NCBI GenBank assembly: GCA_965212005.1
Contig: OZ243038.1
Span: 1,760,096-1,824,095, forward strand
Length of the DNA stretch: 64,000 nt
Direction of reading: 5' to 3'
Source of the DNA: Candidatus Porifericomitaceae bacterium
GTDB taxonomy: Bacteria; Pseudomonadota; Gammaproteobacteria; Porifericomitales; Porifericomitaceae
A program made the translations under genes and the position numbers. The notes under the pieces were generated by a model. It was not told the origin of the DNA. It worked only from the letters and a program-made list of their open reading frames with translations, and did no database searches. Positions within the stretch are counted from its first letter, which is position 1. Each line of letters begins with the position of its first letter. Positions 42,656-50,910 of the stretch are shown in pieces.

Positions 42656-43298
42656 GCCGGTTAAGGATTCCCAGGGACAGATCCGGATCATGCCGCGCCG
42701 GGGGCTGGTGAGCGGATCGCTCGGTTCGGGCGTGAGAATTAGGGGTAAGGGCAACTCTACGGGGGTCAGGCAGTGCTTCGCGCTCCTACTCTTAAAGCGG
42801 GAGTTTTGGCGCTCGATTGCGGGCGGTTTTTCCTCCAGCGATCGTCTGAAGCGCCTGGGCCGGCTTCTGCTGGACGATGCCGAGACGGCGTTACAGGCAC
42901 TACAGGATGAAGTGACTGCAAAGGAGGGCGTCTACTTGCTGATCTGCCTGGATGACTTGGCGCGCGTGGAAGAAATGTCGCGCTTGACCGGCCTGGAGGT
43001 TCCGTTGGAAGTTAAGACTTTCCCGTTCGACGGAGACGTGCACGGGGTAGTGATTTCGGTTCGGCACTGGGCCGCGCAAGGAGAGGGCACGGGCAGTTAC
43101 CTGGTGCGCCCGCTGTCTAAAACCGGGAGCCACGTCCAGGCCTGGCGGATTACGGACCAGGCATTCGAGGCTTCGCTGCTGGCGCGCGTGCTGCCCTTTA
43201 CTTCCTCACTCGATCGGCCCTTGAAAAATGCCAGGTTGGTTTATCAATCCGATTGGGTCTCCTACCTCAGCATCTACGAACTGTCTCCGCACAGGTAG
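42621..43298 (+). CDS. Hypothetical protein, probably a C-terminal gene fragment (weak STT3/PglB-like pattern)
   Basis: Protein-like only from about 42790; no good start or RBS; ends RLVYQS...SIYEL. Confidence 0.4.
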   Translation: MPFRRAYRSSSEPVKDSQGQIRIMPRRGLVSGSLGSGVRIRGKGNSTGVRQCFALLLLKREFWRSIAGGFSSSDRLKRLGRLLLDDAETALQALQDEVTAKEGVYLLICLDDLARVEEMSRLTGLEVPLEVKTFPFDGDVHGVVISVRHWAAQGEGTGSYLVRPLSKTGSHVQAWRITDQAFEASLLARVLPFTSSLDRPLKNARLVYQSDWVSYLSIYELSPHR

Positions 43299-43557: not shown

Positions 43558-44190
43558 ATGAAACTATACGATTTTACACCGGCCCCGAACCCGCGGCGGG
43601 TTCGGATTTTCGCCAGCGAAAAGGGCTTGCAACTGCCCACCACGCAGGTAAATTTGCGTGCGCGCGAGCAATTTTCTGCCGCCTTTCGGGCGATCAATCC
43701 ATACTGCACGGTGCCGGTGCTGGAGCGTGCCTCCGGCGAGTACATCTGCGGGGCCAGGGCTATCTGCGGCTACCTGGAGGCTTGCCATCCTGAGCCTCCG
43801 TTGCTTGGCGGTGATGCCTGGGAACAGGCACAGGTGGCCTCGTGGACCGGTTTCGTGGAAGAAATGGGCATGGCCGCGGCGGCCGAAGTGTACCGGAACA
43901 CGGCGGAAGCGTTTACCAATCGTTCCCTTCCCGGCCCGGTGCCTTGTGAACAGATCCCGGCGCTTGCCGAGCGCGGCCGCAAACGCTGGGCATCCTTCCT
44001 CGGCATACTCGGAGACCGCCTGGAGCAGAGCCGCTACGTGGGCGGCGCCCATTTCAGCCTGGCGGACATCACGGCCTGGGTATGCTTGGATTTCTCCGCC
44101 TGGTCCGAGTTGCCCGGGGTCAGCGCGGCCTCTCCCGGGCTGCAGCGCTGGTATGAAGGTCTCTGTGCCCGCCCCAGTGCCGGGGCCTGA
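43558..44190 (+). CDS. Glutathione S-transferase family protein
   Basis: KLYDFTPAPNPRRVRIF, INPYCTVPVLE, AICGYLE, FSLADIT. Confidence 0.9.
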   Translation: MKLYDFTPAPNPRRVRIFASEKGLQLPTTQVNLRAREQFSAAFRAINPYCTVPVLERASGEYICGARAICGYLEACHPEPPLLGGDAWEQAQVASWTGFVEEMGMAAAAEVYRNTAEAFTNRSLPGPVPCEQIPALAERGRKRWASFLGILGDRLEQSRYVGGAHFSLADITAWVCLDFSAWSELPGVSAASPGLQRWYEGLCARPSAGA

Positions 44191-44216
44191 GCGGGCTGCC
44201 GGATCGGTCCAGAACC

Positions 44217-44331
44217 CCACTGTCCCGCCGTTTTCAGGCCCGTGCCGGGCCAGGTCAGTTGCTCCGGCACCTTAGCCGAACTGCCCATCTCCCCCATAAA
44301 AAAGGCATGGACAAAAAGGCCGCTTGATCTA
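44217..44331 (+). repeat. Diverged copy of the region upstream of tRNA-Ala/23S (partner 44999-45073 and 45159-45189)
   Basis: 75-bp block with 6 mismatches by manual alignment, plus AAAAGGCATGGACAA.AGGCCGCTT.ATCTA block. Confidence 0.9.
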
Positions 44332-44574
44332 TTATTCTATCAATAACGCAGGATGCTGAAGGCTAGCGTGCTCCGTGTCGCAACATTGTAGCGTGCACGG
44401 GGCCGGAGGTTTGCAGCCTGATATTTTTATTGAGTTTTATTATAGGGAGGCGTAGATTATGTTTTTCATATTTTTCATATTTAGGATAAGCATACGGATT
44501 ACTTACAAGAAGTGTTGGTAATGTTGAGGATATAGTACATTAGTATAGTGTAAATTTTAATAATAATTATAAAC

Positions 44575-44609
44575 AAAAGCCCTTGATCATTGATCAAGGG
44601 CTTTTTTTT
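44575..44609 (+). terminator. Intrinsic terminator, near-identical copy of the post-5S terminator
   Basis: AAAAGCCCTTGATCA-T-TGATCAAGGGC followed by T8. Confidence 0.9.
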
Positions 44610-44649
44610 GCTCGGGCATTGTGACTTACGTTTGTTCCCATCTTGCTGG

Positions 44650-44970
44650 TTGACGTTTGATCGGTTGCGGCTCTCACCCGATGACGGCACGGAAATCGCA
44701 TTGACCGTGGCGGTTGTGCTGAGTGCGGAGGCGGCTAATGAGGTGAGCTTCACTGTCTCCACTGCTGATGGCACCGCTGTTGCCCCAGATGCTACATTGC
44801 CGTGATCGACCGGACGCTTTGGTATTGCTGCTGGAGACACGAGCGTTAGCATGGTTAATGACGGCATGGGGTGTGGGGAGAAGAGCAGTTTACCGTGACC
44901 CTGAATGCCGATAGTTTGCCTGTCAGGATCAGTTTGGGTCCGCTAGCCACCGCGACGGTGCGTATCGCTG
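44650..44970 (+). pseudogene. Calx-beta domain remnant
   Basis: LTVAVVLS..AANEVSFTVSTADGTAVAPD and EEQFTVTLN...SLG..ATATVRI in broken frames; paralogous to 49572-49843. Confidence 0.75.
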
Positions 44971-45091
44971 TTTGGAGCCCGCGCATCCGTACAGATCGCC
45001 ACTGCCCCGCCGTTTTCAGGCCCGTGCTGGGCCAGGGCAGTTGTTCCGGCACCTTGGCCAAACTGCCCATCTCTCAATATAAATCCTGCTA

Positions 45092-45211: not shown

Positions 45212-45287
45212 GGGGCCATAGCTCAGCTGGCAGAGCACCTGCTTTGCAAGCAGGAGGTCGGCGGTTCGAGCCCGCCTGGCTCCACCA
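45212..45287 (+). tRNA. tRNA-Ala (TGC)
   Basis: GGGGCCATAGCTCAG...TTTGCAA...GGTTCGAG...GGCTCCACCA; G3-U70. Confidence 0.97.
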
Positions 45288-45475: not shown

Positions 45476-48404
<2,929 letters not shown>

Positions 48405-48501
48405 TGCAACCTCAAGGTTTTAGAGGCGGGTGTCTGCCCGTTTCCCTGAACTTACCTTGAGGCGACTTGAAGCGATGCAGCTTTGACAAGATTATCCGAT
48501 T

Positions 48502-48619
48502 TGCCTGGTGGCAATAGCGAGTTGGAACCACCCGATACCATTCCGAACTCGGAAGTGAAACGACTCTGCGCCGATGATAGTGTGGGATTTGCCCATGCGA
48601 AAGCAGGACACTGCCAGGC
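48502..48619 (+). rRNA. rrf: 5S rRNA
   Basis: TGCCTGGTGGC...CCGAACTCGGAAGTGAAA...GCCAGGC. Confidence 0.97.
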
Positions 48620-48626
48620 TCTTCAT

Positions 48627-48661
48627 AAAAGCCCTTGATCAATGATCAAGGGCTTTTTTTT
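48627..48661 (+). terminator. Intrinsic terminator after 5S rRNA
   Basis: AAAAGCCCTTGATCA-A-TGATCAAGGGC followed by T8. Confidence 0.92.
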
Positions 48662-49329
48662 GCCTGGCTATTGTGACTCGCGTTCTTCCCTGCCTTGCCG
48701 ATAGACGTTCGATTCTCAGCGGCGCTCACCCGATGACGGCGTGGACATCGAATGAGAAGATTCGTAAGGAAGTTCCGGACACAATTTTCGCAGGCCGGGA
48801 AAGTCAGCCCTGATTGTATGGCTTATGGATGGAAAGGAATTTCCGATCGGCCAATATACGGTTTGGCGAATGGCCGAATGCCGCAGGATAACGCCTTCCT
48901 TAATGTGGCGTAAGCTGCAGGTTTCCGTACCAGGGAAAAACAAAGTAATCCATTGATTCTTATGTATATTTTATGGATATTTCTTAAAAGGATAATTCTA
49001 CCAAACTAAATAAAACATATAGGAAGGAGTATCAGGAAGGAAAAGAGGTGATCCCTTTGTTTGGGAATACTCTCGGCGTAACTCCTTGCGCAGGCAAGTT
49101 GAGTTTCAATCGTTGCCTGGTTGCGGTAGCCGTTACATTGAGTGCGCTCTGCTTGATCCCTTCCTCTTCTTTAGCCCAGGCATCAGGCAATCTCCCCCGG
49201 CTGTAGACTGGTCGAGGCGTGCGAGGTTTACTCTCGACTGCGATGAGAATGAACACGAGGATGACTGTGACGTCAGCGCCCACCCGCGGACAAAGATGGA
49301 TACTGTCCGGTCCGGCAGCAGCGGGCTAT

Positions 49330-50108
49330 TCCGTTCAATGCTCACCGTGGGCTTCACGCCGGACAACTGGGATCGGCCACAAACGGTATGGACGCTGGTA
49401 CACTTGGCACTGGCGCTGCGTTTCTGGTTACCCTCATTTGGGAACTATCGTTCGGAAGACTCGCGCTACGCCGCTCTCAACACCTCGGTTACATTTGAAG
49501 TATCCGGCGTTGGAAGGTCAACGCTTGCTTTCTCCGGGGCGACCTGCGAGGTAACTGAGGATGCAGGCACACTGAGGGTGCCGGTTCCGTCGAGTACGGC
49601 GACGGTCAGTTACGTGAGCTGTACCGTATCCACTGCTGACGGTAGCGCCGTTGCGCCGAACGACTATAGCGCCGTGAGCGGACCAGCTCTTGGTATTCCG
49701 GTCGGAGCCACCAGCGCCTCCGCGGCAATGCCGATGATGCAATGGTGGAGGGAGAAGAGCAGTGTACCGTGACCCTGAACGCCGGCAGTTTGCCGGCCCG
49801 GATCAGTTTGGGTACTTCGGCTACCGCAACGGTGCGTATGCTGCCCAGACGGTCGCCCTGGATGGGGAAGCCCTGTATAATGCCAATGCTTGTTAGTTGC
49901 CATGATGCAGGTATCTTGGGGGCACCGATTATAGGTGATGCAGTGGCTTGGAGCTCGCGCATCATGGAACATGGAACGAGGTATGAATGGCTTGTATGAT
50001 TCGGTATTCAACGGTCGGGGAAGTATGCCGCCTCGCGGAGGCACGCCGCTCAGCGACGATGAGATTCGCGCGGTCGTGGATTACCTGGTGAGGGAATCGT
50101 CGCCATGA
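49330..50108 (+). pseudogene. Decayed Calx-beta + cytochrome c5 fusion gene
   Basis: FTPDNWDRPQTV, Calx-beta (FSGATCEVTEDAG, STADGSAVAPNDY, EGEEQCTVTL), then DGEALY, (C)VSCH, GAPIIGD..AW..R, MPPRGG..LSDDEIRAVVDYL across several frameshifts. Confidence 0.8.
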
Positions 50109-50247
50109 GCGTGCCAGGTTGGGGGCCAGGTTGGGGGGTAGGTCCGATCGTCGCATCCGGGCATTTACGCTGTGCCGTCCGCCCCATTTAGGTCGTTGTA
50201 TACTGCCTCACCCCGGTTTGTTCGTTCCCACCCCACGATCCTCGGCC

Positions 50248-50910
50248 ATGAGTGCCCCCGCTCCGTTGCCGACGCTGCGTTCGCCTGAATCTGCGCCCTT
50301 TTTACTTGAGGCGCGGCATATCGAGTGCGTTCGCAACGAGGTTGTCATCTTTCGCCGGGTAGCGTTTCGCCTGCAGGAAGGAGCGTTACTGCACATCAGT
50401 GGGCCGAATGGCAGCGGCAAGACCAGCCTGTTGAGGATAGTGAGCGGTCTGCTGTTGCCCAGCCAGGGCGGTGTATGCTGGCGAGGAGAGGATATACAGC
50501 GCGGGCGCAGAGATTTCTTGCGCGAACTCGGCTATCTTGGTCACGTCCCGGGCCTGAAAAAGGAGCTTAGCTGCATGGAGAACCTGAGATTGGCGCTCCT
50601 GCTCGACGGTGCTCGTCCCAAGGTCGGCGCCGGCGAGGCTCTGGCGCGGGTTGGTTTGGCAGGGCGGGGGCGGACGCGGGTGGCGGCGCTCTCGGCGGGT
50701 CAGCGCCAGCGCCTGGCGCTGGCCCGCCTGTTGGCGACGGACACCCTGCTGTGGCTGCTGGATGAGCCCTTTACTTGTCTGGATCAGGACGGCTCCGCGA
50801 TGGCGGGCGGACTGATTACCGATCACTGCCTGGCCGGCGGCCTGGTAGTCTTGGTCTCGCACCAGCCGGTCTCGTTTGGGCGCGTCCCGGTGACGCGGTT
50901 GTGCCTGTGA
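50248..50910 (+). CDS. ccmA: Heme ABC exporter ATPase CcmA
   Basis: GPNGSGKTSLLR, YLGH, LSAGQRQR, WLLDEPF. Confidence 0.95.
   Translation: MSAPAPLPTLRSPESAPFLLEARHIECVRNEVVIFRRVAFRLQEGALLHISGPNGSGKTSLLRIVSGLLLPSQGGVCWRGEDIQRGRRDFLRELGYLGHVPGLKKELSCMENLRLALLLDGARPKVGAGEALARVGLAGRGRTRVAALSAGQRQRLALARLLATDTLLWLLDEPFTCLDQDGSAMAGGLITDHCLAGGLVVLVSHQPVSFGRVPVTRLCL

Follow-up and report, generated by a model that had tools for sequence, protein, structure and literature searches.

The inverse autotransporters (type Ve; e.g. intimin, invasin and SinH) possess a signal peptide, a pre-barrel domain, an IAT_beta barrel and a C-terminal passenger made up of β-sandwich domains, with the pre-barrel position in intimin being filled by a LysM domain. 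The class I cytochromes of the c5/ScyA family (e.g. 1cc5, 1kx2 and 8smr_L) are small proteins that are either soluble or tethered at their N-terminus by a helix or a lipid. In the porin-cytochrome conduits (MtrCAB, DmsEF and PioAB) a porin surrounds a haem chain, and in Cyc2 a haem domain is fused to the barrel. Cyc2 is described as a fused cytochrome-porin (PMC8406198). At the level of titles and abstracts, the literature that was found describes no type Ve or Calx-β protein with cytochrome domains.

Within the window (i.e. the whole stretch of 64,000 nucleotides that was analyzed), the region 49048-50108 is a pseudogene in which a Calx-β domain leads into a cytochrome c5 domain. The homology and collinearity of this region with a protein from a relative, its lesions, and the presence of these lesions in a second strain are directly observed, and the sequence comparisons suggest, with a probability that we place at roughly 80%, that it would be a dead locus left behind by the collapse of a cluster of three genes, which the relative (G003/P0154) has kept intact.

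An inverse autotransporter-type protein with cytochrome domains

An exhaustive phmmer search recovered 453 matches at E <= 0.001, and nearly all of the 150 listed among them are giant proteins with multiple Calx-β domains, a CxxCH motif of any kind being seen in only 2 of these 150. Searches with pieces of the window reached a 904-residue protein (P0032), one of two CxxCH-bearing matches, in which Pfam profiles identified a reaction-centre-type di-haem domain (CytoC_RC), an IAT_beta barrel and a Calx-β domain (75.1 bits). Residues 562-767 of P0032 align with 49311-49834 of the window, and the protein ends in a shifted frame. A gene 58% identical to P0032 is present in another genome of the same family as the window genome (G003), where it runs off its contig. 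A search initiated with P0032 recovered a complete protein of 955 residues from a metagenome assembly (P0154), which shares 99% identity with the G003 gene (contig C148) over residues 1-807; beyond these the contig breaks off, short of the PKD-c5 part.

P0154 contains, in order, a signal peptide, a di-haem cytochrome (CytoC_RC, 83-179), an inverse-autotransporter barrel (IAT_beta, 300-485; 53.4 bits against a cut-off of 22.3), an Ig-like domain, a Calx-β domain (660-772; 64.8 bits), a K319L-like PKD domain (779-870) and a C-terminal c5-type cytochrome (Cytochrome_CBB3, PF13442, 875-949; 55.8 bits), the numbered domains being delineated with Pfam. Comparisons with solved structures matched the N-terminus to reaction-centre cytochrome subunits (8z82_C, 2.8e-12) and the C-terminus to c551, c555, ScyA and c5 chains (2zon_G, 2.4e-13; 1cc5_A, 2.7e-7), and returned weak matches of the barrel to invasin (4e1t) and intimin (4e1s) with E 0.006; a weak match to the NCBIfam model for SinH was also recovered. 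Structure prediction, which the earlier note had proposed as a check, was of partial help: the AlphaFold2 model of P0154 from a two-row alignment has a mean pLDDT of 32, and it was usable for residues ~530-655 and not for the topology. A fold search with the model of this region recovered common Ig-like sandwiches (top Z 9.6), and among such folds the first passenger domain resembles the passenger of Yersinia InvE (5n40_A, Z 8.4).

Hence, P0154 resembles the inverse autotransporters in its signal peptide, pre-barrel domain, IAT_beta barrel and C-terminal passenger of β-sandwich domains, but differs from them in having a di-haem cytochrome at the LysM position and a c5 domain at the tip of the passenger. 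Unlike the known c5 proteins, its c5 domain lies at the C-terminus of a 955-residue protein predicted to reside in the outer membrane. As in Cyc2, a haem domain is fused to a barrel. The cytochrome-autotransporter family is rare: it is represented by the gene in G003 (one of three other genomes of the family), by P0032, a further metagenome protein, and by the window remnant, with P0154 being its one full-length intact member, and a metagenome scan with the alignment of P0154 and P0032 gave one weak match among 188 pattern matches. The window genome (G000) carries five further IAT_beta genes with frames of 366-6639 residues, some of them with many Calx-β repeats, and a CxxCH motif is present in none of these five frames. 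Giant Calx-β proteins with inverse-autotransporter barrels (2768, 3443 and 6639 residues) are encoded at 457000-491000 and 1402647-1422563 of its contig C1, and similar giant Calx-β genes are found in two further genomes (G001 and G002).

Analysis of the gene neighborhood in G003 showed that two genes (363-2977 of contig C148, locus L064) lie directly upstream of the cytochrome-autotransporter gene and encode proteins of 506 and 363 residues (hereinafter ORF506 and ORF363); all three genes share the same strand and follow one another nearly without intervening sequence. ORF506 has no matches in Pfam, NCBIfam or the PDB, and no homologue at E <= 1e-8 was found in 400 genomes of the class. The Atlas groups it with outer-membrane barrels, some unnamed and others of the TIGR03016 type (feature score 0.97; TM 0.74 by query and 0.89 by row), and this placement, taken as a lead, suggests that it is probably an outer-membrane β-barrel. 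ORF363 contains 14 haem motifs (13 CxxCH and one CxxxxCH), matches Cytochrome_C7 (E 1.9e-14) and shows weak, sub-threshold matches to MtrC/F; with 29.3 bits against a cut-off of 192.2, its match to the DmsE-decahaem model TIGR03508 of the DmsE/MtrA family is likewise below the threshold. Like the genomes that encode the porin-cytochrome conduits, G003 codes side by side for a putative barrel, a multi-haem cytochrome and a cytochrome-barrel protein, but the barrel of P0154 is of the autotransporter kind and not a porin around a haem chain.

A probable collapsed cluster in the window

P0154 is collinear with 49212-50105 of the window in four pieces distributed over three frames (tblastn): residues 534-723 match 49212-49712 (39% identity), 733-768 match 49733-49840 (56%), 875-887 match 49855-49893 (69%) and 889-955 match 49895-50105 (55-57%), with the linker and PKD domain (769-874) being skipped. 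The window thereby keeps a β-sandwich passenger (Ig-like and Calx-β) collinear with residues 534-768, in which the Ig-like domain and the first two thirds of the Calx-β domain occupy 49296-49712 on the + strand (P0154 ~560-723, with an approximate left boundary and an internal gap of ~25-31 residues) and the end of the Calx-β domain follows in a different frame at 49733-49840 (+). The c5 domain is distributed over three further segments of the + strand, namely 49855-49896, which runs from its start to the first haem cysteine and into a TAG stop codon (49894-49896), 49895-49963 (P0154 889-911), which opens with the S-C-H of a split CxxCH motif, and 49974-50108 (P0154 ~913-955), which supplies the axial-Met motif and the terminal stop codon. 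The two domains named in the earlier note are supported by Pfam profiles, with the ORF at 49086-49772 reaching 26.6 bits with the Calx-β family PF03160, just below the cut-off of 27 (E 6.4e-6), and the piece 49935-50108 reaching 30.9 bits with Cytochrome_CBB3 (PF13442; cut-off 27, E 3.4e-7).

The c5 domain of the window belongs with the c5/ScyA cytochromes in its CxxCH, its G-x-M-P-x-R-G-G signature and its length of 80 residues, but is broken, unlike these. The axial methionine suggested for it holds up, as its G-S-M-P-P-R-G-G motif is aligned in all 23 c5 domains that were compared. Among these 23 the C-terminus of P0154 is the closest, with 48 of 84 positions identical (57%), followed with a small difference by P0151 (43/79, 54%) and by the paralogue in the window genome itself (43/81, 53%). 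It is also the nearest neighbor of the window c5 in the tree, in a weak grouping (support 81/69 over ~85 columns), and the two have in common an extra residue before the CxxCH and the same C-terminal ending. The collinearity with P0154 and the closeness of the c5 domains therefore indicate that the Calx-β domain and this c5 were part of one ancestral polypeptide. In P0154 we thus have the intact homologue with both domains for which a search had been recommended, and its build agrees with the ancestral haem-tipped, adhesin-like stalk that had been envisaged; however, the ORF reconstructed earlier does not amount to the whole ancestral gene, as the barrel and the N-terminal di-haem domain are missing from it, and the Calx-β domain would not have run directly into the c5, since a PKD domain lies between them in P0154.

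The 5' part of the remnant has a different source. A short ORF at 49048-49206 (+), which by eye begins with a Sec signal peptide-like segment and ends in a stop codon, is probably the start of an orthologue of ORF506, and a stretch at 49143-49295 (+) is the remnant of the N-terminus of an ORF506-like gene for a putative outer-membrane barrel: it matches residues 37-88 of ORF506 with 43% identity and 38.5 bits over 54 residues including an acidic run, a score that was reached by none of 200 shuffled queries (best 25.0 bits). Thus, the signal-peptide region upstream of the fusion probably derives from another member of the cluster than the fusion itself. Residues 1-493 of P0154, ORF363 and the rest of ORF506 have no match in the whole window genome; the IAT_beta barrel of P0154 is likewise absent from both the window and the whole genome, leaving the window copy, in contrast to the inverse autotransporters, without any barrel.

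Taken together, the collinearity with P0154 and the ORF506-like start argue that the region would be what is left of a collapsed, non-functional three-gene cluster. The ancestral cluster would have comprised a first gene for a probable outer-membrane β-barrel of 506 residues, a second for a cytochrome of 363 residues with 14 haem motifs, and a third for a type Ve-like protein of 955 residues, with a di-haem domain predicted to be periplasmic and a passenger ending in a mono-haem c5. In the lineage of the window a deletion of ~4 kb may have fused the first ~90 codons of the first gene to about codon 555 of the third, taking with it the rest of the first gene, all of the second, and the di-haem domain and barrel of the third. 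The PKD domain would also have been lost, and five frame changes and a stop codon would then have built up, an order of events that we infer from the present arrangement; the product of the locus today is likely to be nothing functional.

The reading frame of 49048-50108 shifts five times in ~1.06 kb and is additionally interrupted by the stop codon, as seen in three-frame translations. The single C reported as absent is a 1-base loss between 49839 and 49840 (+) relative to a paralogous copy (copy A, see below), the main copy (copy B) reading GTGCGTAT-GCTG where copy A reads GTGCGTATCGCTG. The GT reported as absent at ~49893 is also accounted for: TGT TAG at 49891-49896 places the first cysteine (49891-49893) and the TAG in one frame and AGT TGC CAT (S-C-H) in the next, and the CxxCH has therefore been split by a 2-base loss, with no intact CxxCH in a single frame remaining in the window c5. 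The tandem duplication of ATGGAAC was found as described, with the 7 bases occurring twice at 49964-49977 (+) and shifting the frame. Two more frame changes, at ~49190-49206 and ~49715-49735, lie 5' of the reconstruction that had been quoted, and since the upstream ORF with the signal peptide stops at 49206 there is no continuous ORF with an export signal for the c5. An alternative genetic code or programmed frameshifting was rejected because of the five shifts of differing kinds and the large deletions.

Copy A, at 44575-44970 (+), is a second and more decayed copy located inside the 16S-23S spacer. It consists of a terminator-flank segment matching 48627-48753 and a Calx-β part matching 49570-49843, where its homology with the main copy stops, four bases beyond the 1-base loss. 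On the left, the duplicated segment is bounded by the terminator hairpin after the 5S rRNA (48627-48661, +), which recurs at 44571-44605. DNA of G003 can be aligned with the two copies as far as the final Calx-β codons, after which it runs into the PKD linker. The only rRNA operon of the genome (39214-48619) is interrupted by 4.0 kb on the same strand, flanked by tRNA-Ile (41127-41204) and tRNA-Ala (45212-45287). Besides copy A, this insert contains an intact gene for an OprO/P-type porin (41375-42655), an unassigned ORF (42621-43298) and a gene for a glutathione S-transferase (43558-44190). A 92-base direct repeat with 88% identity is present at 44200-44291, after the stop codon of the glutathione S-transferase gene, and at 44982-45073, before tRNA-Ala. 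This repeat and the doubled 5S terminator suggest that the 23S-5S half of the operon was long ago duplicated in tandem and that one rRNA copy was lost; the duplication would have extended from upstream of tRNA-Ala through the 23S, the 5S and the remnant, with loss of the first rRNA copy thereafter. The remnant lacks the PKD domain, and the homology of copies A and B stops at the Calx/c5 joint. That it ends there, at 49843, could mean that the joint was produced by a subsequent rearrangement and not simply by the loss of the PKD domain.

Alternative origins of the joint and shared lesions

A rather improbable variant of this history is that the collapse at first left a short chimaera, comprising the signal peptide and ~50 residues of the first gene, the Ig-like and Calx-β domains and the c5, which would briefly have been exported by Sec as a periplasmic c5 beside the ccm genes until frameshifts killed it. 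Both large joints indeed keep the frame, for which the chance is ~1 in 9, with a second frame being open across the joint of the first and third genes (49086-49772) and the Calx-β and c5 domains falling in one frame when the base retained in copy A is counted. The sequence upstream is AT-rich in part and includes a plausible signal peptide. However, a pair of joints in frame is statistically weak, and no promoter was found by a promoter scan on the + strand of 48400-50400. Moreover, no protein of this short architecture other than itself was present among matches of 125-399 residues, and a C-terminal c5 was seen in 0 of the 150 best matches of the exhaustive search and a Calx-β domain at 0 of 16 c5 loci. 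Searches with individual ORFs did not recover the fusion: an 85-residue ORF spanning the junction recovered only generic cytochrome c proteins in 400 genomes of the class, with no match over both of its parts, and only c5 clusters in the Atlas (scores <= 0.84); a 228-residue ORF matched only itself at near length; and a 57-residue c5 ORF, compared with longer proteins, yielded 3 matches from 16 candidates, all of them anchored or multi-domain c5 proteins. At the DNA level, a search of 41 genomes (the window genome and 40 relatives) recovered nothing beyond the window itself, copy A and one match of 42 bases expected by chance.

Far less probable is that a deletion joined an adhesin fragment by chance to an unrelated c5 gene and that the two were never one protein. 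Certain observations point in this direction: all 16 stand-alone c5 loci (19 were returned, and the three weakest, L093, L094 and L095, were left out) come with an anchor, a lipobox or a signal peptide of their own as judged by eye, P0151 and P0153 also have their own anchors, and copies A and B diverge at the joint. Further, at two of the 16 loci, both gammaproteobacterial and one labelled Sedimenticola (L077 and L079), a membrane-anchored c5 gene adjoins ccmABCDE; it lies divergently upstream of these genes and in another clade, and on the sequence evidence this linkage appears to be separate from that of the window's c5. Against a chance junction stands P0154, a single chain that carries the Calx-β domain and the nearest c5 in the order seen in the window, and the view of the joint as mostly a chance deletion scar was overturned by it and rejected. 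The earlier note had held that separate c5 genes in relatives would speak for such a junction; those found are orthologues of another c5, which is intact and anchored in the window genome (C1:1401090-1401710) and is shared by the other three genomes of this family.

Downstream of the remnant, ccmA (50248-50910, +), with which an intact ccmABCDEFGH operon opens, belongs to the context and begins 140 bases after the c5 stop codon. The linkage to ccm genes, whose conservation in relatives was to be checked, did not prove to be conserved: a CxxCH-containing ORF of at least 60 residues was found within 1.5 kb on either side of ccmA at 0 of 17 loci from relatives in the class (selected from 29 matches by setting aside two loci of the genome itself, two located at the ends of contigs and eight that were weak ABC matches), and an ancestral c5-ccm operon was rejected on this account. 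G003 has its ccm genes on a contig other than that of the autotransporter gene (5774-9396 of contig C168, L075), where they start at ccmB, with no adjacent match to ccmA, and face a divergent gene for an 895-residue multi-haem cytochrome. In G002, ccmF was matched as two pieces in separate frames.

With the reading as a collapsed cluster in hand, the age of the lesions can be considered. Contigs from two public sequencing runs (X1 and X2) match the region from 48628 or 48600 to 50300 with 0 differences and may represent the source sample. Contigs from two other runs (X3 and X4), which carry another organism label and come from another study, show 41-42 substitutions and 12-13 gaps and represent a strain diverged by ~2.5% from the window genome. 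The reads had been named as the place to look for the indels, and both of these contigs span the three sites in question and list no indel there, i.e. they have the same lesions as the window; they possess extra indels at 49437 (-1) and, in X4 only, at 49687 (+T). Therefore, the lesions common to the two strains indicate that the pseudogene is real and predates the split of these strains. The divergence of X3/X4 is ~0.5% over 48654-50030 and exceeds 12%, with seven indels, over 50031-50257, a stretch comprising the 3' end of the c5, the spacer and the first codons of ccmA, and this jump may mark a recombination boundary. That the frameshifts are sequencing or assembly errors in a gene intact in the organism is next to impossible, for although indel errors can occur in single-contig assemblies such as that of this genome, the three c5 lesions, among them a 7-base duplication and a 2-base loss, are common to independent contigs from four runs and two studies, the adjoining ccm genes are intact, and the barrel and di-haem parts are missing from the whole genome.

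Implications for the intact family

The locus in the window does nothing itself and is a fossil. The loss of the cluster is fixed in both of the diverged strains and adds a minor data point on how genes decay in this lineage. The architecture of the intact family joins the self-export machinery of intimin-type adhesins to c-type cytochromes at both ends of the chain, a combination that is not otherwise known. We propose that the type Ve protein may exchange electrons across the outer membrane in concert with the multi-haem cytochrome and the barrel encoded next to it. For the intact P0154-type protein a redox role, such as the contact with host or surface envisaged in the earlier note, would be conceivable, and by analogy with its family the di-haem domain is predicted to be periplasmic and the c5 to be at the surface. 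More tentatively, and rather doubtfully, in P0154/G003 and perhaps P0032 the c5 haem might be carried on a surface stalk of Ig-like, Calx-β and PKD domains, with the di-haem domain remaining in the periplasm, and, together with the 14-haem cytochrome and the β-barrel, the protein would pass electrons between the periplasm and an external partner. If true, this would be a new kind of outer-membrane redox module, with minerals, sulfur species or the surface of a host as conceivable partners, and the lineage of the window would have discarded it. Haem is attached to c-type cytochromes in the periplasm. Hence, such display would need a covalently haem-loaded domain to be exported via the autotransporter route, and we know of no autotransporter that exports a haem-bearing domain. 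If the haem at the tip is indeed exposed at the surface, the family would represent a new route for the display of redox proteins and would raise the question of how such a domain crosses the outer membrane.
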